64,000 bases of DNA from a virus (taxonomy: Duplodnaviria > Caudoviricetes): positions 64,001 through 128,000 of IMG/VR virus record IMGVR_UViG_3300034101_006325. One strand, given 5' to 3'. Positions 3,051 to 46,408 of this stretch are shown here, piece after piece; position 1 is the first letter of the stretch, and each line of letters begins with the position of its first letter. The position numbers were made by a program, and so were the translations under genes. The notes under the pieces were generated by a model. It had not been told where the DNA came from. It ran no database searches and saw nothing but the letters and a program-made list of their open reading frames with translations.

Positions 3051-4262
3051 TCAATGTTCATGCAATGTTTCCACTTTGAGTGGGAAGGGCGCAGTGTAAC
3101 CCGGCACTTCGATCGACGACACGCATTCGACGTCCTTTATCCTGTCGTTCCGCACGTCGAGTATCAGTGCATCATGGAGGACGAAGAGGGGACGAATGCC
3201 GTCGGTCCCGAGTCGGTCAAGAATTGCCTTGAATCCCAACAGAGAAACGTCGACACCGGTGCTCTGTGCATAGGTGTTGACGAATAGATGCTCGGAAGAA
3301 GAATCATCGACAGTCAGCGGCCGCCCATACTTGTTGTGTATGAAGCCTGTGGAGGATAGATCCTCAGCAATGCGGCGCCGTAGATCGGGCGTGCGGAAGT
3401 AGGATCGAATCCTGTCGATAAATTTATCCAACTGCTCGCCCGACATGTCGAGGCGTCTAGAGATGAGCCCTTTCGATGCACCGTATAGTTCAGCAAGGAC
3501 GGCCACCTTCACGGCTGCTCGGTCGATCGACCCGTCAAAGAGCTCCTTCGAAATATGTCCGTAGACATCAGCAGAGGGTGCATGGACGTCAGCCTCGTGC
3601 AGGATGATCCTCGCCTCGAGGGAGGAAAAATCCAGCGACACAACCTTGCCATCGGGAAAGTGCGACCTGATCATCCCACGATGTTCTCTCTTCAGAGTCA
3701 ATATGTTGGGACCTGACTCTACGACGAGGCGGCCCGTCCTCGTGCCGAATCGATCATAGACGACTGGCGGCGAGTATCCCCCTGCACCGGGTCGAAATGA
3801 TTCCAATGCTCCGTTGCCCGTGCCGCACTCTTCGATCAGCGCACGAAATCTAGATGAATCAACCTTCGCAGGACGCAAGGAATCCAGGACCTCACCGCAG
3901 GGAATCCACGTTTCATTAAAATATTCCACGGGAAGTCGATCGAAGCTTCCAATGACCTTTTTTAGAATATTTTTTATGTGTGCTTTGTATTGACTCGGAG
4001 CCATCACTTGCGACCATGGGACGTCCGATTCCAGACCCACGGTTCTCATCGCAAGCCTCCATTTTTCTGAGGGCATGACGTCGACAGGAGAACCTCCTAG
4101 CCTGAGCAATGAATCTAGGCAAGGAGAACCAGAGTTTCGAAACCTGCCCGTGAGCAGCAAAGTCCCAGGAGGAACTCGAGAAATGCTGCTAAAACCTTCG
4201 GAGTGCACGAGGAGGTGTGCCTCGGCGCCGAGAACAGTTTTGTCCACACAAAAATTCTGCAA
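3051..4262 (-). CDS. Minimal family A DNA polymerase-like protein (polymerase domain only)
   Basis: TRTGRL, motif A VSLDFSSLEARI, motif B RAAVKVAVLAELYG, motif C LFVLHDALILDV. Only 403 aa, with no recognisable exonuclease motifs. Confidence 0.75.
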   Translation of the reverse strand: MQNFCVDKTVLGAEAHLLVHSEGFSSISRVPPGTLLLTGRFRNSGSPCLDSLLRLGGSPVDVMPSEKWRLAMRTVGLESDVPWSQVMAPSQYKAHIKNILKKVIGSFDRLPVEYFNETWIPCGEVLDSLRPAKVDSSRFRALIEECGTGNGALESFRPGAGGYSPPVVYDRFGTRTGRLVVESGPNILTLKREHRGMIRSHFPDGKVVSLDFSSLEARIILHEADVHAPSADVYGHISKELFDGSIDRAAVKVAVLAELYGASKGLISRRLDMSGEQLDKFIDRIRSYFRTPDLRRRIAEDLSSTGFIHNKYGRPLTVDDSSSEHLFVNTYAQSTGVDVSLLGFKAILDRLGTDGIRPLFVLHDALILDVRNDRIKDVECVSSIEVPGYTAPFPLKVETLHEH

Positions 4263-8989: not shown

Positions 8990-9289
8990 TTAACCTACCA
9001 ACGATCTGACGTCCTCGAGGCTCGGGACGTTAATTAGAGTGTTGGGTGGAACCTGAAGTCCCCAGCCGATGCCGCTCGCAGCTGCGAGGACCCACCATAG
9101 GCTGGCGTCACCATATAGGACTCCTGCGAGTGTGTCGAGTCGATCGAGCTCGGTGGTCACGATTGTTCGCTGAATCCTCAGATTTCCATTCCGAAGAGCA
9201 TTCCTCAGATAAAAAACCGCGCCAGGAGAAGCCAATCCTTTCCTGTCGTCGGCAAAATTATCCCTCTTGTACCTGCTAAAAGATGCCAT
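8990..9289 (-). CDS. LysM/tail-X-like baseplate protein
   Basis: DRLDTLAGVLYGDASLWWVLAAASGI...PPNTLINVP motif in baseplate context. Confidence 0.78.
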   Translation of the reverse strand: MASFSRYKRDNFADDRKGLASPGAVFYLRNALRNGNLRIQRTIVTTELDRLDTLAGVLYGDASLWWVLAAASGIGWGLQVPPNTLINVPSLEDVRSLVG

Positions 9290-9303
9290 TTTAATTACAA
9301 TGT

Positions 9304-12300
9304 TTATAGATGATCATCAGGATTATAACCTGGAATTTCTCTATCCAAGTCTTTTCCTATTACTAACTTAGCACCGAAGCCCCCTAGTCCTGCTATGGGC
9401 TGGTCGCCAACTGAGGCTACTTCACGAGAATATCTATTTGTGCTACTTACTTCTTCTACATGTGACCCAACTTTTTTACTAGGCGGCGGCAATACAGGTC
9501 CTCTTGGAACTCTTGCGTCGACTCCGACAGGATATACTGGTGCTCTATTATGACCCATGCTGTCGAGACCTGGTGTGATATCGTGGATTGGGCTGAAATT
9601 GATGGAGACCTTGCACATTTTAGGTGCCTTTCGATTGGTGTCAGTATCCCATGTCGTGCCGCTCAACCAATCAAAATTGATGGAATCTATAAAACCTGCA
9701 AGACCTTTGCCGCTCATCGTTTTGAAGGATCTAACTATTGCATTGGTTTTGTTTTCTTCTGAAGAAGTTTCAGAAGCAAGGAAATTATTCATTTCATCGT
9801 AATACATTTTTGCTTTGTTGTAGTGAGCAAGGCTTTGTTTTTTAGCAAATTCTGCAGTTAATAATCTTTCAGAGATTACTTCAAGCGAATTTATCAGATC
9901 TTCTTTTTTAAATTTTAATCTAAAATCAAAATTAGAGTATTTGTTTCGATTAGAATTTAGTATTAATTCTGTTAACTGTTGTTCGACAGCTTTATCTGTA
10001 GCCTTATCTGGAGATTTTTCATTTTTCAAAGCATCCGCTTGATATTCAATTAAAATTTTTCTTGCAAGCTTTCTTCTGGCTGCTTCGTCGGTTTCGACAT
10101 TCATGATCATTTCAGCTTCAGTGCTGTTTAATACTTTTTTTATAGCTTTGCGAATTTTTTTTAATTTTTCAACTTCATCAGTATCACTTTTTACTTGATT
10201 AAAAAGATCAATATTGCTGTCATATTTTTGATTATTTAATTTTGCATCATTAGGATCAAAGAGACCAAATATACCTGCAAGGTTGAACTTTGAATAATTG
10301 CTGGCGACGACGTTGCCAATCCTCAACCTGATCATTGGCGCACCCATTGGAGACTGTGTGAATGGTTTTTCGAATCTGTACCCGTCGTTATCAGGATTGA
10401 CGTAGGGTTTTCCCTTCCCAAATTGTGGATAGACCATCGACACCAGCTTGTTGATTTTAAGCCACATGGATTCGAAGTCATGTCTGTCGGTCGAGGCAAT
10501 TATAAAACTAAACGTCAACTTGCGTAAAGTATTTTTGTAGACCTTGACGGGCTCAATTCTGCCGATGCCTTCAGTGGACTCATAATTTGCAGAGTAATCG
10601 TCTGTCAACGTGTTGAGAAAGGCATGAAAGCCCAAGATTTCGTTCGTCCTAAGATCGTGAAAGTAAAAGGGAACATATTCTGAATCAAATTGTCTTTCAA
10701 TCTTTTCTCTCAAGGCAGTCGGAATCCTGTTCTTGCCTTCAGAGATTGCAAATTTAGTTTTTTGCAGCGGGTCGTCGGTGATAAGGCGCCCGGACATCAA
10801 TTTTTCATCAACAGCTGCCAAATTGAACTTAGACTTGGGGATCAAAAATAGGTCGGGAGTCCTATTCGTCGACCATGCCAGCTTTGTGATAGTGTCTTTG
10901 CCGGTGCCCAATCGACTCTTAACGTGAGTCGCGGCGGGATCATTATCGTACATTGCATCTATTGTGGAAATTTTCATGCCAGCGTCGAGATTTGCAACTG
11001 TAACATTCTGTAGATGCACAGTAGAAGTGGGAGATCCTTCGATGGACCCAGCACTAACCTGAGCAGTTGTTGCATCCATTACGAGTCGATCACCGAGTCG
11101 AGCGAAGAGTGCGATTGCTGCAATAAGCCTGGAGTTTCTAATCGTCTCGATGATTTCCACGAGCTGCACGATTGAGCTGATGATGCCGCCCGTTGCGGCT
11201 GCAGCGCCTGCCGAAGGTGCCTTTGTCACGGCACCTGCAATAATTTCGCCGAGCTCCTGGAAAGCCATCGTAATTTTTACAGTCGACCTGACCACTGCTC
11301 GTGCCAATATCGCATAAAATCCTGGATTTTGCAGTGCTGGTGTCGTATTGTTTGAGTTGCCATCACTCAAGGGATTCATCTGGGCAGTCACAGACTCAGC
11401 AACTCCCGGTGTTGCTGTAGTAGGTGTTGCGAGGCCGACAATGTCCTGCGCTCCAAAGAACACTGCCGTGCCTGCGGTCACAGCCTGGGTGAAGTTGCTG
11501 ACAGTGGGTGTGATTCCAAAGAATCTAAGAATTTTCTTGCCGCCCGACTCGTCCACTCCTGGCATGAACATGCTGATAATGTCGTTGGCAGCCATTGATA
11601 TCGGCATGCCGCCCTGATACGAACCTATTCCGTGGCGTCCCTTGTAATATTTTTGATCCACCTTCGCAGGCTTTCCAAAGAACCAGTTCTGCGCTTCCTC
11701 ATCCTGTGCTGCACCTAAAAGTGCAGCTATTCCTGTGATGGCGGCGATTATCACGACGACGAGAGATGCTGACAAGGCGATCATTCCAAATGCCGTGAAG
11801 CCTGAAAACTTCTCGTAGACGCTGTTGACGACGCCCTCGAACGATGAGTTCGGATCGATGTATTGATTCTCAGGCACGGGATTTTTCGTCAAATTCTTCA
11901 GGAGTTCACCGACGTCAAGATCCGTTATCGAACGGGGTATTCCTAGCTGACCAATTCCCGGGAGAAGAGTCCCTGCCTCTGCTGTGGCCGTTGGATCAGC
12001 ACTGCCGCCGTCGACCATGCCTGACAGGTCGCCAGTTGCTCGAAGTTGCAGGAGAGTGCCGAGCTGTGCAAGTCGATCAAAATTAAATGTTCGAGGCGTC
12101 TCAGAATCTGTTCCTGGCGACACGCCAAATTTTAGCCTGTCGGGGGCGACGAAAGTGTCGTAGGGTACGCCTGTGGGTGAAGGTCTATCGAGTCCGGCTG
12201 CTAGTCCCTGGGCAAGGAGGCCAGTCGTTGCAGTATTGCCTCTCAGACCCTGAGAAGTAATGATTGATACTGCTGCCCTGATTGCTTCTGGGTCTTGCAG

Positions 12301-22356: not shown

Positions 22357-25300
22357 TCACTGCACCTGTTGTAGGTTGTTGGCCACCACGAAGTCGAGGC
22401 TGACGAACTCGATGCTCTTGGTGGGTTGGACGTAGATCTTTCCGCGGACCGTGTTGTTCTCGATGTCGACCTGCGTCGTGGTCGAGGAGTCGATGATGAC
22501 GCGGAATCTCTCGAGGCCGCTGAGTGCCTGGATCCTCTGGAGCCTTGGTGTGACCGCGGCCGAGAAGCGAGCGAGTGTCGCCTCGCGGTTGGGCTCGAAG
22601 ATGATCGTCTGCGCGATCTCGCGGACCTGACGCCTGATCTCGATGAGGAGGCGGCGGACGTTGACGCGATCGAGAGCCGATGCTGCGAGCTGTAGTGTCT
22701 TCTGACCCCAAATCACGAGGCCTGATGCAGGATTTGTTCCGCTCTTTGGCGATCCGACGAAGGCGATGAGTGGGTTGAGTCTCTCGTTGTAAAGCACGTC
22801 GAGGTCCTCTTCCTTGAGCTTCGTCCTCGCCTCGAGAGCTGCTGTTGGAAGAGCACCACGTGTGAAGCCTGCAGGAGCGAACCATGGGTGTCCGACAGCA
22901 TCGTTGAGCGAGAGTGCTCCCATCACGAGGACCGACGGTGGAACGAACACGTTGTTGCCATCGGGAGCCGAGTAGAGGACGTCTGGGAAGTAGGCCGATG
23001 CGAAGCTCGAGTCGATCGATCGATCCTTGAAGCTCGTCACAGTGTTGTTGACGGAGACGATTTGATCGTCGCTCTTGACCTCGTAGTCGGAGTCAATTCC
23101 TTCGTCGGTGTACTGCTCTACGTCCATGATGTAGAGAGCATCGAACCTATCCTCGACTGCGACTGTTGCGTAATCTGTCACCACTGGGTGACGAATGCCT
23201 GGGATGGCAAGGAGCTGGATGTCGATATTTGATGTATTTCTCATGATATCGACGGCCTTGAGGTATGCCTTTACGTTTGGTCCATTGTTGAGGAGACGAC
23301 CATTCGAAGCGATCATGTCCTCACTGATGGCGGCGTTGCTGAGCGTGAACTCATCCTGATCGAAGATGTTGACGCCGTTGAATCCGCCTTGGACGAAGAA
23401 CGTGAACTTTGAGTAGGTCCTGTTGACTGTCTCTCTCAAGTCCTTGACCTGAAGTGCTCTAGTCTTGTTGGCATTGTCCACACCGACCACGCCGCTTCTT
23501 ACGTAGACTGCGTCGTCCCACTTAAGTGTGTCTGCCAGACCAGATGATCCTGTGACGACCTGCACGTGCTCGAGGCTGAACATGTTGTTGCAGAACCTAT
23601 CGGCGTCGAGGATTCCATGGGTTGCCGTGTCTGCAACGCCATCGTTGTCACCCACAATGAATGGCATGAACGATGTGTGGAAATCTGGGAAGTACTTAGC
23701 ATAGCTCTTCATTGAGTCATTTGCAAGAACTGACGCATTTGGCTTTGTAATATTCTCGACGTGTTCAAACTGTGATCCCCAGTAGAATTTGTTGTTCGGT
23801 GCTTCTGCTTCTGTTCCAATGATACCGTCGGTGATCTTAAGGCGGTAAGGAACGGGTGGTACAACTGACTTTTGCAGGACGCTGAGATTGGGTATTCCAT
23901 TGATGCCGCCAAGGACAGGGTCTGAACTGTTTCCAAACTGTGGAAAGATCACACTTCCTGACGTCACAAGATGCGCAGGTCCTCTAAAGCCCATTGGAAT
24001 TGCTGTCGCGTCGACGAATCCATTTTCCACATCTGGGTGGACTTCAACCCTGACATATTTCGATCTGTTAGGATAGCTTCCATCGATAACGATCTTTTGT
24101 TCTTCGTCGTCGCGATCAAAGTCAAAGTAGGAGTTAATGTTTCCGATGATTTTTGCAATGTAGCGAGGAGATGTTGGATTGAGATCAACAGTAAAGCTTT
24201 CGCCAGTCGTGATAAGCGACTGTTTCTGGTCTCTATCGTTCCATTGTCTGATCTTTATTGTAAAGCTGCCGTATCTATTGACAGGATCTATTGAAGGTGT
24301 GATATTCTCAATTGAAATCTTGTAAAGAGTCGAGATATCCTGTCCTGCGTCGAGCGAGTGAAGTCTAAAGAGATTCACAGGCTTTCCACCGAACTTTTGA
24401 GAAATCACCCACGGTGACTTTGCATACCTGAATCTATCTTCAAAGTTCTCATAGTTTGGAACGTCAGCACTGCCAGTATTTCTATCTACCGAAGACGTTA
24501 GGATGAATGCTGAAGTTTCAGTTCCTGGCTTTGCCACGTGAGAAGTGGCTCCAGCTCCGTGTGTGCCCGAGAGAATTCCTGAGCCTGTAACGACTGCCAA
24601 AGAGCTGTGGATGTCCCAGTTTGCGTATAGATAATGACCTTTTTCTTGAATCTTAAGAGGATCTCTGTTGAGAACTTTTGCGAAGTATCCATTAGATGAC
24701 ACATCGAACGATGCTGTAATCGTGTTAGGATTATTTGCATCTCCTTTGTGCCCGTTCAAAAAGAGAACAAAGTCCTTCTTTGAGATGCTGTTCTCTGTGA
24801 AAACAACGGAACCAATTGTGGTGCCGTGAAGGCTTGGATCTCCTAGAGCACCTACAGTATTTGTGCCTAACTCTCCGCCAAAATTGGTGCCGCCGAGACC
24901 TGATGAAAGGGCCAAGAGAACGCCCGAGGGCGCCATTAGAACGCCTCTAACGATTGGAGTAGCAACATTTTGTCCTTTAACCTGCAAGCCAGCATCAGAA
25001 AGATAATTTGATCCTGCCGATTCTGACATAAAGCAGCCGAGGAAGTATGTCCTTCCCATCTCGCCGTCGTCGTTAGCGTATGGATTTTTATCGAGGGCCC
25101 CGAGCGTTCCACTTGGTTGCTCCTCACCGACGACGAATCCTGCATTTGTTACAGCACCTGGATTGGCTCCATTGCCATCCTGACGTTCAAGACCATCGCC
25201 GACGCCTAGGACACGTAGATAAGTGACTGCCTGTGCATTTCTTAGCCACTCAAGAACTGCCATTGGTCCAAAGTGTTTACTATCAACATTTCCGAATCTT

Positions 25301-25467
25301 GACTGGAAATCTGATAATAAACCCACCGTTACGGGAACGAATGCTGGTCCCTTGGCCGCAGTTCCGATGATGCCGGCAGGTATTCCTACTGGCTGAATCG
25401 CTACTGGTCCTGAGATGTCTATCTCGTTAGCTGTTACTCCTGCTGCTCCTAATTTTAGCTGTGCCAT
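22357..25467 (-). CDS. Tail sheath protein, paralog B (gp18-like)
   Basis: N-terminal GIIGTAAKGPAFVP; C-terminal PWFAPAGFTRG, RLNPLI, VIWGQKTLQ, ALDRVNVRRLL, GKIYVQPTKSIEFV. Confidence 0.93.
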   Translation of the reverse strand: MAQLKLGAAGVTANEIDISGPVAIQPVGIPAGIIGTAAKGPAFVPVTVGLLSDFQSRFGNVDSKHFGPMAVLEWLRNAQAVTYLRVLGVGDGLERQDGNGANPGAVTNAGFVVGEEQPSGTLGALDKNPYANDDGEMGRTYFLGCFMSESAGSNYLSDAGLQVKGQNVATPIVRGVLMAPSGVLLALSSGLGGTNFGGELGTNTVGALGDPSLHGTTIGSVVFTENSISKKDFVLFLNGHKGDANNPNTITASFDVSSNGYFAKVLNRDPLKIQEKGHYLYANWDIHSSLAVVTGSGILSGTHGAGATSHVAKPGTETSAFILTSSVDRNTGSADVPNYENFEDRFRYAKSPWVISQKFGGKPVNLFRLHSLDAGQDISTLYKISIENITPSIDPVNRYGSFTIKIRQWNDRDQKQSLITTGESFTVDLNPTSPRYIAKIIGNINSYFDFDRDDEEQKIVIDGSYPNRSKYVRVEVHPDVENGFVDATAIPMGFRGPAHLVTSGSVIFPQFGNSSDPVLGGINGIPNLSVLQKSVVPPVPYRLKITDGIIGTEAEAPNNKFYWGSQFEHVENITKPNASVLANDSMKSYAKYFPDFHTSFMPFIVGDNDGVADTATHGILDADRFCNNMFSLEHVQVVTGSSGLADTLKWDDAVYVRSGVVGVDNANKTRALQVKDLRETVNRTYSKFTFFVQGGFNGVNIFDQDEFTLSNAAISEDMIASNGRLLNNGPNVKAYLKAVDIMRNTSNIDIQLLAIPGIRHPVVTDYATVAVEDRFDALYIMDVEQYTDEGIDSDYEVKSDDQIVSVNNTVTSFKDRSIDSSFASAYFPDVLYSAPDGNNVFVPPSVLVMGALSLNDAVGHPWFAPAGFTRGALPTAALEARTKLKEEDLDVLYNERLNPLIAFVGSPKSGTNPASGLVIWGQKTLQLAASALDRVNVRRLLIEIRRQVREIAQTIIFEPNREATLARFSAAVTPRLQRIQALSGLERFRVIIDSSTTTQVDIENNTVRGKIYVQPTKSIEFVSLDFVVANNLQQVQ

Positions 25468-25489
25468 CTATGACTCCCGATCTACATGC

Positions 25490-25496
25490 TAACTAT
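25490..25496 (-). promoter_or_regulatory. ATAGTTA putative late-promoter motif upstream of sheath B
   Basis: Recurrent ATANTTA motif followed by a GGGAG SD. Confidence 0.55.
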
Positions 25497-25515
25497 TCTG
25501 TTAGTTTCAAATTTC

Positions 25516-28500
25516 TCAAACGAACTGCACGCCAGCGTTGGTTACGATGAAATCTATCGCAATGTATTCAATTGCTCTTGTCGGTACGACGACAATTCTT
25601 CCATTGAGACGATTGAGATCAACGTCAACCTGCGTGTTGTTTGTCTCGTTCATCACGACCTGGAAGGCCTCGATGCCTGCCTGGGTTTGGATGAGAGACA
25701 GTTGGAAAACTGCATCCGAAACGAATCTATTGCGAACAGCGGGCGTGTTCTGCTCAAACACGATCTTGTTTGCAATTCCGATGATGATCCTCTTGACCTC
25801 GAGGAGCAGGCGTCGGACATTGACTCGGTCAAGTGCTGATTTATTGATTTGAAGCGTCTTTTGTCCGTATATTACGAAGCCAAGACGTGGGAACGTTGCA
25901 ATTGGATTAATTCTTGAATCATAAAGAACGTCTCTATCTGCAACGCTCAATCGAACTGCTACGTTGGAAACAAAGTCAAGAGCTGCTCTGTTGAATCCTG
26001 CAGGAGCAAACCACGGGTATGACACACGATCATTAAAACCTAGGGCTCCAAGTGCAGCAACAGACGCGGGCACCTTGACTCGTCTCACGTTTCTTGTATC
26101 GTCGATGTATACATCAGGGAAGTAAGTTGCCGCATAGTTGTTGTCTATGACCCTGTTGTCAAAAGCGGAAGTTGTTTCCTTGACGTTCGGTCTAACAGCA
26201 GAATCATCATATATTCTTCTGCCTCCATCGTCATATGCAGGAATATCCATGACGTGCATTGCTAATCCATAATCACGAACTTTCTTTGAAGTTCTATCCA
26301 TAATGTAGGGTTCTCTAATACCAGGTATCGCGAGAATATTGACGCCTGCTGTGTACGGATCAGTCATTATTTCGACTGCTGTCATATATGAAGAAACGCC
26401 GTTGTTTTCCTTGCCTGTTCCTGAGACATTAGCACTAAATCCATCAGGGACATAGTTTGTCGAAGCGCCACCAATCGAAAGCGTATCAGCATCGAATGAA
26501 ACAGACTTATCATTGAGACGGCGAGCGTCGCGATCAAGATAATTTGTCCCATCGAAACCACCGTACATGAAGGTAGTAAACTTGGCAAAAGGTGAGAATC
26601 GATTGAAAACTGCCGGAGTAGCTTTTGAAAGAAGCGTAGCAAATGTTATTCTGTCTGTGATGGTTCCGTCAGAAACAGTGTAATTGCTTGAATCTGGTGT
26701 TGCATTCCTGAGATACGCTGCTTCCTTCATGTGTGTCGAAGCAGAACCAGTTAGATCGTTGACCGAACTGTTGTAGAATGCGACCTTGGCCAGAGTAAAC
26801 TTGTTATTGTTGAATTGATCTGCGCCTGAGCCTGTATGCAAGACGTCAAGCTTTTCAATTCCCATGAACTTAGTTAATGAACCAAGCAGAGAATTCTTTT
26901 CATTTATGACGTTGTTGTTTAAAACTTCTGATTCCTTGCTCAAGGCATTTCTTTCAAACTTAACGCCCCAGTAAAGTGCAGGGAGAGCAACTGATTTTGG
27001 TCCAGGCAATCCTGCAACTGTTGTGTTAGTATTGATTTCTCCTCTAGTCACCTTGTAACGATAAGGAATTGGAGGAAGCACAGATCCTGTGAGAATATTA
27101 CTGGGTGTAATCGATGGATTTGTTAAGGAACCTGAGAAGTAGGCGCCTAGTCTCGCGCTTCCCGTTGGAAGAATATCAAAAACATTGCCGTTATCATTTG
27201 TTTTAAGTAATGATGGTCCTCTAAAACCGAATGGCAAAGATTCATTCGGAACGAGCTTCTTAGCAACCAAGTCGGAGATTACTACTCTAACGTACTTTGA
27301 TCTATTTGGGTACTTACCAGAAGCAATCAGTCTTCTTTCTCGCGGGTCAACGGCATCGAAGTAGTAAGAAACTTTTCTATCTCCGATTAGCTTGCCAATA
27401 TAATTTGAAGAATCTGGATTTAGATCACAATTTGTGAATTGCTCTATAATGACGGGATTTGTGTCTGTATCGTTCCAATCACGTATCTGCACGTTGAACG
27501 TTCCAAATTTATCGGCATCGTCCGGCGAAGCCTTTATTGTTGCAATTGAAATCTTATAGAGTTGATTTGCATATTCGCCGTCGTCAAGTGCTTCGAGCTT
27601 AAAGAGATCGTACTCTGTTGTTCCAAAGGGTTGCGAAATAAACCAGGGTGTGACAGGTGCTTTAAACCTTGTGTCGTATCTTCCGAAAATTTCTCTAAAC
27701 TGCAGCGAAGGATCGCTTGCAGCAGAATTGTTTGATCCTGAAAGAACGGCAACCCAGCTGGCGGCCTCAACAGAAGCAATTTGATCATCGACAGCAAAAT
27801 CACCAAGCAGATAATGCTGATGTTCATTGAACCTATCGGGATCTGTGTTGAGTATCTTCGCAAAATAATTTTCAGCTGTCGGATCAAACGATGCCGAATA
27901 GATTCTTAGGCCTGGATTTCCGTCGTCGGCTGCAAACGACGCACCTAACGAAGAAGATATTCCTATCTTCACTATCGAAGAACCATTGACGCTGGCTGTT
28001 TTTCCTGCCTCGTCCTCGTGTGTAACTGAGCTTGTGATTGCCTGATCACCATTGAAGACTACCAAACGCGAGCCAGAAGGAACCATGACTAGCCCACGGA
28101 TGAGCGGTATTTTTGTGCCAGCAAATCCTGTGAACGTATCGTTGTCGCTAAACATCGGCATGCCATAAACTTCGTAATTTGAAGCCGTGTGTTCAGCGGC
28201 AAGGAATTGAACGACTGCTGTGTGTCTATTGAGTGCATTCGCATCAACTAGACCAGGCAAAGAGAAACCTGCGTTAGTAACAGTTCCACGTGTCAGAGTC
28301 TCATTGATATCATCAATTGTGTTGTTTGACCCTGCTCCGAGGACCCTCATGAATGTAAGTGAGTTTCTGTTCTTGAGGAACTCATTGACAGCATATGGAC
28401 CAAAGTATTTCGGATCAAGATTACCAAAGACTTCAACGAACTCATTGAAGTTTGCAACAGTGACCGGCACGAACGCAGGACCTTTATTGGCGGGTCCAAT

Positions 28501-28599
28501 AACACCAGCTGGCGTTCCTATTGGCCCTCCCTGTGCTGGGACCGACAGGTCTATTTCGCGCTCATAAAAGTTTGGTGACCTAAAAATCTGCTCGGACAT
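25516..28599 (-). CDS. Tail sheath protein, paralog A (gp18-like)
   Basis: SPNFYEREID, GVIGPANKGPAFVP, PWFAPAGFNRA, RINPI, IYGQKTLQ, ALDRVNVRRLL. Confidence 0.93.
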   Translation of the reverse strand: MSEQIFRSPNFYEREIDLSVPAQGGPIGTPAGVIGPANKGPAFVPVTVANFNEFVEVFGNLDPKYFGPYAVNEFLKNRNSLTFMRVLGAGSNNTIDDINETLTRGTVTNAGFSLPGLVDANALNRHTAVVQFLAAEHTASNYEVYGMPMFSDNDTFTGFAGTKIPLIRGLVMVPSGSRLVVFNGDQAITSSVTHEDEAGKTASVNGSSIVKIGISSSLGASFAADDGNPGLRIYSASFDPTAENYFAKILNTDPDRFNEHQHYLLGDFAVDDQIASVEAASWVAVLSGSNNSAASDPSLQFREIFGRYDTRFKAPVTPWFISQPFGTTEYDLFKLEALDDGEYANQLYKISIATIKASPDDADKFGTFNVQIRDWNDTDTNPVIIEQFTNCDLNPDSSNYIGKLIGDRKVSYYFDAVDPRERRLIASGKYPNRSKYVRVVISDLVAKKLVPNESLPFGFRGPSLLKTNDNGNVFDILPTGSARLGAYFSGSLTNPSITPSNILTGSVLPPIPYRYKVTRGEINTNTTVAGLPGPKSVALPALYWGVKFERNALSKESEVLNNNVINEKNSLLGSLTKFMGIEKLDVLHTGSGADQFNNNKFTLAKVAFYNSSVNDLTGSASTHMKEAAYLRNATPDSSNYTVSDGTITDRITFATLLSKATPAVFNRFSPFAKFTTFMYGGFDGTNYLDRDARRLNDKSVSFDADTLSIGGASTNYVPDGFSANVSGTGKENNGVSSYMTAVEIMTDPYTAGVNILAIPGIREPYIMDRTSKKVRDYGLAMHVMDIPAYDDGGRRIYDDSAVRPNVKETTSAFDNRVIDNNYAATYFPDVYIDDTRNVRRVKVPASVAALGALGFNDRVSYPWFAPAGFNRAALDFVSNVAVRLSVADRDVLYDSRINPIATFPRLGFVIYGQKTLQINKSALDRVNVRRLLLEVKRIIIGIANKIVFEQNTPAVRNRFVSDAVFQLSLIQTQAGIEAFQVVMNETNNTQVDVDLNRLNGRIVVVPTRAIEYIAIDFIVTNAGVQFV

Positions 28600-39673: not shown

Positions 39674-39853
39674 TTAGCCTTTTAAAATTTGTTTATTTTC
39701 GTTCAATGCCTTTGAAGCGCTAAAAAGCTTTTCCTGTAGAAGCGTCAACTTTTTACGAAGATCTTCACAATTTTCGCCTTTAATTTCTTTTGCAGCAATT
39801 AAAATTTTTAGCTCTTCAACTTGTTCCATCAATGCTTCAGTTGTAGCTGACAT
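39674..39853 (-). CDS. Small coiled-coil hypothetical protein (59 aa)
   Basis: Start MSATTEALMEQ at 39853 with GAGG SD. The longer track start lies inside the tmRNA. Confidence 0.65.
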   Translation of the reverse strand: MSATTEALMEQVEELKILIAAKEIKGENCEDLRKKLTLLQEKLFSASKALNENKQILKG

Positions 39854-39877: not shown

Positions 39878-40249
39878 TGGAGTCAACCGGTACTGCCCCG
39901 GTGTCCGAAATTTCTTTTTAATTAACTTCTTCACAGACTTGGAATGATTTTATCGACGTCATCCTAGTCTATTCAATCTGACCTCTTTTACGACCGGTCG
40001 GATCAAAACCCGTTAGTCGTCTTCCGGAACCACCTTCCGAGAGAAACCCACCTCATACAGTGAGGATAACCATTGGTTGTGACTTTCTGTTTCTAGGTTG
40101 TCACAAAACCAACCAGTCAGGCCGCTAGGTTGACTGGGACATAGCCGTTATCGTTGGCAATTGTACGTCACTTGGATTTTTACCAGGTTCCTCGTGCACC
40201 TGGGTCTGCATTAATTAATCAAAAACTCCGTCGAAACTATATTGACCCC
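39878..40249 (-). ncRNA. ssrA: tmRNA (ssrA), one-piece standard gene order, 372 nt
   Basis: 5' GGGGUCA pairs with 3' UGACUCC-A (G3-U70 alanine determinant); D-loop UUCGAC; T-arm ACCGG-GGCAGUA-CCGGU; helix-2 complementarity (GCAGAC/GUCUGU, UUUUUGAUUAAUU/AGUUAAUUAAAAA); internal tag ORF. CCA is not encoded. Confidence 0.95.
40117..40158 (-). other. tmRNA tag reading frame ANDNGYVPVNLAA*
   Basis: GCC resume codon, ANDN start, LAA degron end; stop codon inside the CCAGUCA...UGACUGG hairpin. Confidence 0.92.
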
Positions 40250-40250
40250 T

Positions 40251-40592
40251 TTATTGCTTATTTTTCTTAGGCCTACCTATTTTAACAGGCATATCTTTTT
40301 TAACTGGTTTAAACTTGTTAACTAGCACTTCTTGAGGTATTGATTCCTTTATTTTGTCTAATTCCGTCTGAAGTCCTTGGATCTTGTTTGTTTCGGACTT
40401 TATCCATTTGTCAAAACCAGTAGAAAGCTCCTTCAATTCAAGGCTCTCGAATGCGCCTACAATAGCGTCTTCCATTGCCTTTTTCACGCTTTTATAAGTC
40501 TCTTCTTCTTCCATGTCTCGAAAAGAATTTTCGTTATTTTTAATACAATTGTAAAGAAGAAGAAACTGCTTTGGTTGAAAATTTAAGATCAT
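40251..40592 (-). CDS. Hypothetical protein
   Basis: 113 aa, GGAGGA SD; stop lies 1 nt before the tmRNA 5' end. Confidence 0.7.
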   Translation of the reverse strand: MILNFQPKQFLLLYNCIKNNENSFRDMEEEETYKSVKKAMEDAIVGAFESLELKELSTGFDKWIKSETNKIQGLQTELDKIKESIPQEVLVNKFKPVKKDMPVKIGRPKKNKQ

Positions 40593-40613: not shown

Positions 40614-40638
40614 GGGCTGAAAGTTTATCTTTCAGCCC
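40614..40638 (-). terminator. Probable terminator hairpin
   Basis: GGGCUGAAAG-AUAAA-CUUUCAGCCC followed by AGUUUUAAUUUU. Confidence 0.55.
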
Positions 40639-45028: not shown

Positions 45029-46408
45029 TCAAACTGGGCTTTGGTTCACAATGCCAGAAATCCACTGGCCTGAATAAAATTCCTCGACTCTTAGACGGTC
45101 ACCTTTTGAAACTGCAAATGCCACTGCTGCTCCGGCTGCTGCAGAAGTAGAATTTGCAGACTGTCCAGGTACATCATTGCCAGTCGCTGGATCGAATCCT
45201 ACAACAGATCCATCTGATTTTACACCACCAAACCATCCTGTCTTTGTGTAGCCATTACCCATCACATATATCCAATTTGAATTTCCAGGCGTTCCATCAG
45301 GCCAGCCAGACCTTTCCAGCGGTGTCTTGGGTGTGTCGCCATGGACTGTAAAGACTAAATTATCTGCGAGAGTCTTGTTGGAACATGTCGGATCAGAGAT
45401 TCCTGATAAATCACTCATAAACATGTCTAAAATCAATCCTAAATGATCGACAGTCTGCAAGAGGCTGCCCATGTCGGCAAAAGCACCGTGCGGATCATCT
45501 CTAAAAACAGGCGCAATTACACAGGAAGTTAAACCAAGCTTGAATGCCTTTGACGTGGTAATTAAAGTCTTTGCTAGCTCTCTGAGCTTATTAGGTGTAG
45601 AAACTGTAACACCATAACGGGACAGATCATCCTGGGATGGTTCTAATAATGCCGCCAAATTCTTTCCTAGGAAATTAGCACTCTTTTTTCCAATATTTAA
45701 CGGTCGCTGCACAGTGGATCTAGTCGAAGCAGAGTTTAGTCCAAGGAACGCCTTGTAGTATGCTTCAAAAAGTTTGGAATCCTGTTCGACTTCGAGTATT
45801 GAACGACTGGCAGCACTGTTGAACAGCTGAACCATTCCATCAGCATTTCCTACAGTTGTAAGTTGAGGAGAACCGGGCGCAGTGCCAAAGGCAACAGGGG
45901 TAATTCCAATGACAGGAATTAAGGTCGGATTTGCCCTTTGTATCGACGAACAGACGGCCATCATGCTTTGTCCTGCTCCGACGGTTGCAGAAGAACCAGG
46001 CGTCGGTGTGTGAGTCTGGTTTACTCCTGCCATGAAAGCCGATATTCTTTTTGTCCTGTCTTTGTTTTTCCAAGGAGATTGTGGGACATGATACAAGGTT
46101 TTGTCAGCATCGTCTGCCTTGACCTGCTGACCCTGAGCATGAAATGCAAAATTGGAATTTGTGGAAGTTGCAACTTCATTGTGAGGCCAAAGTAGCTGGA
46201 ACCATGCAAAGCCTCCATCACCGGCGACCAAATGGACGGATCTAAGAGTTGTAGAACAAGTGGCTTCGTCGGCCAATGCTGTTCCTGCTGTATCATTAAT
46301 TACGTTGAGAACCTGAGATCTATCAAGAGCCAATGCTGCGCCGGCTGCTGCAGTCCATCTCAAAAATTTTCTTCTAGATTCACCTCGTAAATTCTTTAGA
46401 TCCGACAT
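45029..46408 (-). CDS. Tat-exported protein, DUF1501/DUF1552-like architecture
   Basis: Twin-arginine signal SRRKFLRW followed by a hydrophobic stretch and ALA; RDDPHGAF and VHGDTPK segments. Confidence 0.7.
   Translation of the reverse strand: MSDLKNLRGESRRKFLRWTAAAGAALALDRSQVLNVINDTAGTALADEATCSTTLRSVHLVAGDGGFAWFQLLWPHNEVATSTNSNFAFHAQGQQVKADDADKTLYHVPQSPWKNKDRTKRISAFMAGVNQTHTPTPGSSATVGAGQSMMAVCSSIQRANPTLIPVIGITPVAFGTAPGSPQLTTVGNADGMVQLFNSAASRSILEVEQDSKLFEAYYKAFLGLNSASTRSTVQRPLNIGKKSANFLGKNLAALLEPSQDDLSRYGVTVSTPNKLRELAKTLITTSKAFKLGLTSCVIAPVFRDDPHGAFADMGSLLQTVDHLGLILDMFMSDLSGISDPTCSNKTLADNLVFTVHGDTPKTPLERSGWPDGTPGNSNWIYVMGNGYTKTGWFGGVKSDGSVVGFDPATGNDVPGQSANSTSAAAGAAVAFAVSKGDRLRVEEFYSGQWISGIVNQSPV

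Follow-up and report, generated by a model that had tools for sequence, protein, structure and literature searches.

The stretch of viral DNA analyzed here, referred to as the window, comprises 64,000 nucleotides (bases 64001-128000) of the 200,303-base virus record IMGVR_UViG_3300034101_006325 (Duplodnaviria; Caudoviricetes) and carries on its minus strand a gene for a one-piece transfer-messenger RNA (tmRNA). The gene lies at 39878-40249 and measures 372 nt to the discriminator base. A cmscan search of the window matches the Rfam tmRNA family RF00023 at 40249-39875 (minus strand; model positions 1-374) with 73.7 bits (E 8.8e-27), over the gathering score of 47 bits, and this is the sole Rfam match in the window and in the whole record. 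An above-cut-off score across the full model identifies a standard one-piece tmRNA, in agreement with a first-pass annotation of the window, which had recognized a complete ssrA in standard order within these 372 nt and had proposed the RF00023 search.

The tRNA-like domain is complete, with a 7-bp acceptor stem, G3.U70, a T arm and discriminator A, and its halves occur in standard order, the 5' acceptor strand lying 343 nt upstream of the T arm. We defined the secondary structure from the sequence and scored pairing over nine aligned relatives, which are 52-87% identical to the window tmRNA; all features given here are on the minus strand. The 5' strand of the acceptor stem (P1), GGGGUCA at 40243-40249, pairs with UGACUCC at 39879-39885 (100% paired, three compensatory pairs). 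The D-loop analogue at 40237-40239 is UAG, where standard tmRNAs have UGG and the RF00023 consensus has GG. The T arm, ACCGG-GGCAGUA-CCGGU at 39886-39902, has a stem that is 100% paired with three compensatory pairs and a loop, at 39891-39897 exactly as first annotated, that reads GGCAGUA instead of the canonical TPsiCRANY. The bases after discriminator A (39878) are CUA, and the gene thus encodes no CCA.

Between the two halves, pseudoknot PK1 (CCAGG/CCUGG; CAC..GGA/UCC..GUG) occupies 40169-40203 and is 98-100% paired with three compensatory pairs. The tag frame, ANDNGYVPVNLAA plus a UGA stop, follows at 40117-40158 (codons GCC AAC GAU AAC GGC UAU GUC CCA GUC AAC CUA GCG GCC UGA), after the 5' acceptor as previously annotated; it begins with alanine, ends in a protease-recognition tail, has its stop within a 7-bp hairpin (40113-40137, two compensatory pairs) and is bordered by pseudoknots on either side. 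Pseudoknot PK2 (40079-40110) consists of S1 GGUU/AACC, S2 GUGAC/GUCAC and loop 3 UAGAAACAGAAA; S2 is 100% paired, with compensatory changes in 4 of its 5 pairs, and S1 is 66% paired in fixed columns. Loop 3 holds the motif AACAGAA at 40085-40091, which had correctly been read as lying within the GUGAC...GUCAC element. A structured middle region at 39939-40069 includes hairpin H3a, helix H3b, PK4 and a further pseudoknot-like element, with three compensatory pairs in H3b, 3 of 4 in PK4-S1 and 5 of 6 in the last helix before P2. The 3' strand of helix P2 (39906-39938) pairs with 40204-40230; pairing in P2a, P2b and P2c is 80-100%, and these helices contain 15 compensatory pairs.

Pairing is 77-100% in all helices except PK2-S1 (66%) and PK4-S2 (69%), and when the 3' partners are shifted by one or two columns it falls to 4-62% in the strongly paired helices. 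The first-pass annotation had offered positions ~39960-40075 as a new linker in a re-permuted gene. Because the middle-region helices show compensatory changes, this proposed linker is structured and conserved, and the idea of an unstructured spacer there has to be abandoned. A profile of the middle region showed no sequence similarity to any other tmRNA group; such dissimilarity is usual for PK2-PK4 between phyla, and it does not discriminate among origins. The gene is a member of the standard tmRNA family that departs only in its T-loop, as many bacterial members do, and because at least 119 bacterial one-piece tmRNAs show the same departure, the non-canonical T-loop is no bar to RF00023 membership.

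Upstream of the tmRNA, a 113-aa gene (40251-40592, minus strand, from the list of open reading frames) has its stop codon 1 nt before the tmRNA 5' end, and homologues of this gene occur in the same place in relatives. A 59-aa gene (39674-39853, minus strand) starts 21 nt past the tmRNA match and has syntenic homologues of 33-66% identity. The only terminator-like hairpin (40614-40638) is upstream of the 113-aa gene. These 1-nt and 21-nt gaps, together with the position of the hairpin, fit co-transcription followed by RNase P and 3' processing, and the 113-aa gene and the tmRNA are probably co-transcribed.

The window tmRNA belongs to a phage family that includes 10 sequence types with the GGCAGUA T-loop and 12 further contigs found with a scan that ignored the T-loop (described below). 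Their tags are of the form ANDNG..AP.ALAA throughout, and synteny within the family extends to the flanking 113-, 92-, 59-, 73- and 455-aa proteins (26-77% identity), so the tmRNA is an old, vertically kept passenger. The family occupies a single syntenic position, flanked by small genes amid the virion genes of jumbo myoviruses that are distantly T4-like and come mostly from freshwater. The window's record is an estimated 61% complete with 39.5% G+C and represents a myovirus, with genes for a portal, a terminase and a T4-like major head protein and two for the tail sheath. In the databases, its proteins come closest, at 36-48% identity, to those of the 484-kb uncultured phage LR756508, Flavobacterium phage immuto and Microcystis phage Mel-JY01, and near-identical DNA is found in lake and other freshwater metagenomes from 17 studies. 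Blastn against cultured phages gave no match for the window tmRNA, for another one-piece type or for a permuted type; the permuted type is known from published pelagimyophages, and this blank therefore reflects low sensitivity and not absence. No match was found in plasmids.

If the tmRNA functions as its anatomy predicts, it would be transcribed together with the upstream 113-aa gene, cleaved by host RNase P 1 nt past that gene's stop codon and trimmed at its 3' end after discriminator A. A host nucleotidyltransferase would then add CCA, and host AlaRS would charge the RNA with alanine via G3.U70. Host SmpB and EF-Tu would deliver it to stalled ribosomes, where ANDNGYVPVNLAA would be added to the stalled peptide and its terminal LAA motif read by ClpXP-type proteases. 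SmpB (PF01668) was found neither in the 200-kb record nor in a 278-kb relative that is 84% complete, no CCA-adding-enzyme family (PF01743) was found in the record, and the dependence of this tmRNA on host SmpB and host CCA addition is thus supported, as had been anticipated on both counts.

Some evidence of expression comes from contigs of 325-352 nt in four riverine metatranscriptome runs, which match a family member of the L081 type (87% identical to the window tmRNA). With loose ends included where these are exact L081 matches, their coverage extends from ~nt 13 to nt 363; they run through the middle region and end close to the termini of the tmRNA, short of the flanking genes. These contigs are a hint, not proof, of a discrete one-piece RNA for this relative.

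The tmRNA of mycobacteriophage DS6A, which consists of the tRNA-like domain only, inhibits host tmRNA (PMC4131195), and the window gene, which also does not encode CCA, might similarly titrate host SmpB or simply be decaying, without trans-translation. We consider this very unlikely, as the tag frame, the resume context, the stop in its hairpin and all helices have been kept even though the flanking proteins have diverged to 26-48% identity. An encoded CCA is also absent from 112 of the 119 bacterial GGCAGUA tmRNAs among the matches listed.

GGCRGUA and AACAGAA are described as signatures of alphaproteobacterial tmRNA, and the AACAGAA motif is also present in the consensus of RF01849, the alphaproteobacterial (alpha-type) two-piece tmRNA encoded by a permuted gene. 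Full-text literature searches on GGCRGUA and AACAGAA returned nothing relevant. The first-pass annotation had taken both marks as evidence of a relationship to the permuted alphaproteobacterial form. The two turn out to behave very differently, the T-loop being homoplastic and the pseudoknot constant.

To survey the T-loop we scanned IMG/VR for T arms with GGCRGUA and a CUCCA acceptor end, which yielded at least 120 genuine T arms. The 5' acceptor strand lies 7-280 nt downstream in 108 of 120 among the matches listed, which are of the known permuted alpha type, and 330-404 nt upstream in three, which are one-piece. A standard-order pattern with GGCRGUA matched 21 viral contigs besides the window's record. 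The same pattern, run on one genome per bacterial species with phyla assigned by record titles, identified at least 119 species with one-piece GGCRGUA tmRNAs, all with perfect T stems, in at least nine phyla. Among the matches listed these include Actinomycetota (53, Thermoleophilia/Solirubrobacterales), Gemmatimonadota (12), Myxococcota (10) and Omnitrophota (10), and further holders are Ratteibacteria, Elusimicrobiota, Acidobacteriota, Spirochaetota and others. Within Myxococcota the loop is patchy: of 201 genomes sampled, 3 have it (in one of them, where the stem does not pair, probably by chance), and 4 of 101 sampled genomes of the class Polyangia have a GGCAGUA one-piece tmRNA. A clean example of a coupled switch is provided by the L112 tmRNA (IMGVR_UViG_3300033121_002140, 9058-9419), which is 68% identical to that of Polyangium aurulentum, a member of this class, and about 90% identical through PK2-PK4, yet has GGCAGUA in the T-loop and UAG in the D-loop where Polyangium has UUCGAUU and CGG.

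The T-loop also changes state among close phage relatives. When the T-loop was dropped from the pattern and AACAGAA kept in place, 12 further contigs were recovered, 11 with a standard T-loop and one with GGCAGCG. Their identity to GGCAGUA members reaches 81-83%, and they occupy the same syntenic locus. D- and T-loop states are coupled in all 23 of 23 family members, GG occurring with UUCRAUY and UAG with GGCAG, and in a tree built without the tRNA-like domain at least two flips are forced across starred branches, with five by parsimony. GGCAGUA is therefore one state of a coupled, repeatedly flipping two-site switch and not an alphaproteobacterial signature. Because the switch has flipped repeatedly in bacteria and in the phage family, GGCAGUA is uninformative about alphaproteobacterial descent, contrary to what had first been proposed. 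The U54/U55 modification sites are lost when GG plus UUCGAUU changes to AG plus GGCAGUA, and in phage-borne copies this change may be under positive selection. A GGCRGUA T-loop should not serve to infer host or ancestry, although phage host calls have leaned on such features.

The same caution applies to the window's phage, whose tmRNA features ought not to be taken to indicate its host; the Polyangium tmRNA, at 39% identity, is unrelated to that of the window. A Tat-signal protein encoded 5 kb from the tmRNA in a three-gene envelope cassette (45029-46408, minus strand) is 62-68% identical to Polyangiaceae proteins (Polyangium, Byssovorax), and its homologue in Polyangium aurulentum adjoins a PSCyt2/3-domain gene. 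This likeness of protein sequence suggests gene exchange with Myxococcota.

The AACAGAA mark has a different distribution from the T-loop. It occurs in 94 of 108 permuted phage tmRNAs among the matches listed, in contexts such as ACCUAGCAACAGAAAAGUCAC; within the coding piece its position is mostly nt 117-185, with ~150-160 the most frequent. In the window tmRNA it lies at nt 159, in the context AACCUAGAAACAGAAAGUCAC, and in the relatives at nt 157-159; the RF01849 consensus, which derives from cellular Alphaproteobacteria, terminates in ACCuGGCAACAGAAacCucCACU. The motif is accordingly placed as in alpha-type tmRNAs, as the first-pass annotation had maintained: it lies in loop 3 of the post-tag pseudoknot, in the context YCU-R-G-N-AACAGAA, ~158 nt from the 5' end. 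The architecture of PK2 is common to both, with an S1 of 4 bp, an L1 of 2 nt, an S2 of 5-8 bp, no L2 and an L3 of 10-12 nt containing the motif. In that region, only 1 of 119 bacterial one-piece GGCAGUA tmRNAs among the matches listed has AACAGAA, and the pseudoknots of these bacterial tmRNAs look different. Because the motif recurs in the relatives and yet is found in 1 of these 119, it is not a chance 7-mer here. Moreover, a profile of the first 184 nt of the family gives its best full-length matches to permuted coding pieces (E 1e-11 to 1e-8), whereas other one-piece tmRNAs align to this profile only as far as the tag. PK2 with AACAGAA is thus the constant hallmark of the family and the one feature specifically shared with alpha-type two-piece tmRNA. 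This sharing points to a common origin of the module.

The first-pass annotation had named commonness of one-piece GGCRGUA/AACAGAA tmRNAs as a result that would undo its reading. For the T-loop this is borne out, whereas the two marks together are common in this phage family alone. Among 241 million metagenome records, one-piece tmRNAs with both marks were found in eight contigs, all identical or 97-99% identical to phage types. The bacterial genome scans for AACAGAA required the GGCRGUA loop, and cells combining a standard T-loop with AACAGAA were sought in Polyangia. None of the 301 sampled Polyangia genomes contains a one-piece tmRNA with AACAGAA and any T-loop, the single pattern match sitting in a coding sequence, and Polyangia were rejected as a source of the pseudoknot. 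We also discarded a scan for AACAGAA and a T arm without the 5' motif, since most of its matches were permuted genes for which AACAGAA had occurred by chance in a conserved gene upstream.

These surveys bear on whether the family was captured from cells. It is possible, though doubtful, that the gene was acquired from an unsampled bacterial lineage with a one-piece AACAGAA tmRNA, in which case AACAGAA would not be alpha-specific either. Phage tmRNAs can track host lineages, as the likeness of L112 to Polyangium illustrates, and the 3' tRNA-like half of the family members with a standard T-loop is identical to that of Polyangium over ~33 nt; in addition, cells with a standard T-loop and AACAGAA have been tested only in Polyangia. 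Against capture, however, no such tmRNA appeared in the 301 Polyangia genomes, only one of the 119 bacterial GGCAGUA tmRNAs among the matches listed has AACAGAA, and the eight matches in the metagenome records are all of phage types.

A closer comparison with RF01849 is informative for the remaining origins. The alpha two-piece type, including phage copies in pelagimyophages and in the OM43 phage Melnitz (PMC9004378), shares with the window tmRNA the GGCRGUA T-loop and YAG D-loop, the post-tag AACAGAA pseudoknot ~150-160 nt from the 5' end and tags of the form ANDN...LAA, and it is likewise carried by aquatic myoviruses. In contrast, the window gene is in standard order, is not permuted and has no intervening sequence; its PK2 is internal and followed by ~130 nt of extra structured RNA, whereas the alpha pseudoknot is terminal; and it does not encode CCA, as 107 of 108 permuted genes among the matches listed do. 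In the suggested search with RF01849, the window tmRNA matches in two fragments with 16.5 and 14.8 bits (cut-off 50; a permuted phage gene scores 107.2). The context of the PK2 motif is the same as in the RF01849 consensus. Because gene order and model score fail, the window tmRNA is not a member of the alpha two-piece family. The permuted phage tmRNAs themselves (L036-L155) have spacers of 7 to 280 nt between acceptor and coding pieces, many of their acceptor pieces are preceded by TATAAATA, which resembles a T4 late promoter, and L108 is a permuted gene without CCA.

Two trees, both without cellular alphaproteobacterial sequences, were used to place the family. In the tree that includes the tRNA-like domain, the main permuted clade (51 of 55) lies on one side of a starred branch (95) and the family is outside it, and a tree in which the family and the permuted clade are forced together is as good as the free tree (approximately unbiased test, p-AU 0.53). 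In the second tree, from which the tRNA-like domain was removed and to which E. coli, Polyangium and LR756508 were added, the family forms a starred clade (96/99), and the forced union costs 9 log-likelihood units (p-AU 0.33).

The family could descend from the one-piece ancestor of alpha two-piece tmRNA, keeping the order that preceded permutation, with its PK2 homologous to the alpha terminal pseudoknot; we regard this as rather doubtful. The architecture, loop motif and distance from the 5' end of PK2 are common to both, the best profile matches are to permuted coding pieces, and the family falls outside the starred main permuted clade while joining it to that clade costs no significant likelihood in either tree. 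The middle region also has structured helices where standard tmRNAs have PK3 and PK4. However, the free tree does not put the family beside the permuted clade, deep support is nil, the T-loop, formerly taken for a second shared mark, is homoplastic, and cellular alphaproteobacterial sequences are lacking from the trees. If this descent is correct, the family preserves the one-piece form ancestral to alphaproteobacterial and mitochondrial two-piece tmRNA, permutation discarded the downstream pseudoknots, and the alpha signatures arose separately, before the split.

Alternatively, a tandem duplication of an alpha-type permuted ssrA may have restored standard order, the stretch after AACAGAA being a later linker. 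Re-permutation has a named precedent (PMC11915505), alpha-type permuted genes are abundant in phages, and the middle region is without sequence similarity to any other tmRNA. This route nevertheless appears unlikely: the family is not nested in the permuted clade (starred, 95), and the 130 nt of the middle region form helices that are conserved and covary. An encoded CCA is present in 107 of 108 permuted genes among the matches listed, as against only 1 of the 12 family members whose T-loop is of the GGCAG type, and the many family members with standard T- and D-loops would need to have regained these from alpha-type genes. The re-permuted tmRNA of the Jakoba libera kind is also a standard-order gene related to the alpha-type permuted lineage. 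It is mitochondrial, reduced and without a tag frame, and the phage gene, for its part, shows no evidence of a permuted stage.

Finally, the AACAGAA loop may be a functional motif, such as the binding site of a shared factor, that arose independently in the family and in the alpha type. The T-loop demonstrates that conspicuous tmRNA motifs can arise repeatedly, and there is no supported phylogenetic link between the two groups. Against such convergence, which we judge improbable, the match extends past the 7-mer to the flanking S1 strand, loop length, stem order and position, and the tags are likewise in the ANDN..AP..ALAA style. None of the four readings (sister or relic lineage, early re-permutation, capture from unsampled cells, convergence of the pseudoknot) is singled out by the data.

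Taken together, the gene is very probably a functional one-piece phage tmRNA from a conserved syntenic family, in which the T-loop is a switch state and PK2 is shared with the alpha type. Several points weigh against this reading. A sister relation to the alpha type is neither supported nor rejected by the trees (p-AU 0.33-0.53), and the deep placement of the family in the tree without the tRNA-like domain has a support of 23/66. Common descent of PK2 with the alpha type is argued from one short module, and the cells sampled for a standard T-loop with AACAGAA were Polyangia. The riverine contigs represent a relative with 87% identity, RNA libraries may contain DNA, and no RNA sample was listed among those with the window sequence itself. 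Conserved determinants are the basis on which alanylation, binding to SmpB and tagging are predicted. In addition, the 67%-identical Polyangiaceae homologue of the Tat-signal protein fits poorly with the 39.5% G+C of the phage, far below that of Polyangiaceae.

The closest of the known systems beyond the alpha type are the standard tmRNAs of phages (PMC4131195, PMC9004378). Those of cluster C mycobacteriophages such as Bxz1, of Bacillus phage G and of huge phages such as LR756508 are likewise one-piece RF00023 members in large phage genomes, and the window's record, like the genomes that carry them, is a large phage genome, here without a phage SmpB. Among database phages, LR756508 has the most similar major capsid protein (48% identity), and it too has a tmRNA. 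The standard phage tmRNAs that we examined have a UUCGA-type T-loop and no AACAGAA pseudoknot and are detectable by ARAGORN, whereas the window tmRNA is the opposite in each respect. The bacterial one-piece GGCAGUA tmRNAs have the same standard order and a YAG D-loop, and CCA is mostly not encoded; some of them share the 5' motif GAAAUAGUUUCGACGG of the window tmRNA. Their first post-tag pseudoknot is without AACAGAA in 118 of 119 among the matches listed, and their overall identity to the window tmRNA is ~45%.

ARAGORN is the usual tmRNA finder for phage genomes. It made no call for the tmRNA in the window and found none of the 23 phage and none of the 119 bacterial (among the matches listed) one-piece GGCAGUA forms, although it found 11 of 11 standard-loop sister genes and 3 of 6 permuted genes. 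Because one-piece GGCAGUA forms are missed, published ARAGORN-based counts of phage tmRNAs are underestimates. Phage-encoded tmRNAs and alpha-type two-piece tmRNAs are both known, and the additions made here are this family, the coupled switch and the blind spot of ARAGORN, not a new kind of system. A family that shares only the AACAGAA pseudoknot with the alpha type provides a concrete comparator for the origin of two-piece tmRNA, as well as for the still unexplained role of the AACAGAA loop.

Several related elements were observed during the scans. In one family member without a stop after ...ALAA (L170:11978-12351 and L329:6775-7148), the frame continues to give a tag of at least 30 residues. 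LR756508 has a standard tmRNA of 447 nt and a second, 112-nt tmRNA-like element (L332; LR756508.1 414804-414915) consisting of a tRNA-like domain and a short insert, with 58 bits to RF00023. Elements in L063 (~3610-3680) and L070 (6171-6249, its minus strand) have a GGCAGUA T arm with the 5' acceptor strand only 39-49 nt upstream; they resemble the mini-tmRNA of the DS6A kind and have no Rfam call at the gathering score. L063 also holds a tRNA array. ARAGORN identified no tRNA gene in the window's own record. In G006, the 204-kb record of L165, there are 14 partial RF00023 matches besides its tmRNA, which probably reflect a large tRNA array at ~88-92, 136-138, 185 and 200 kb. In the window itself, two adjoining tail-sheath paralogues of ~1030 aa each (22357-28599, minus strand) have long N-terminal extensions before the sheath domain.

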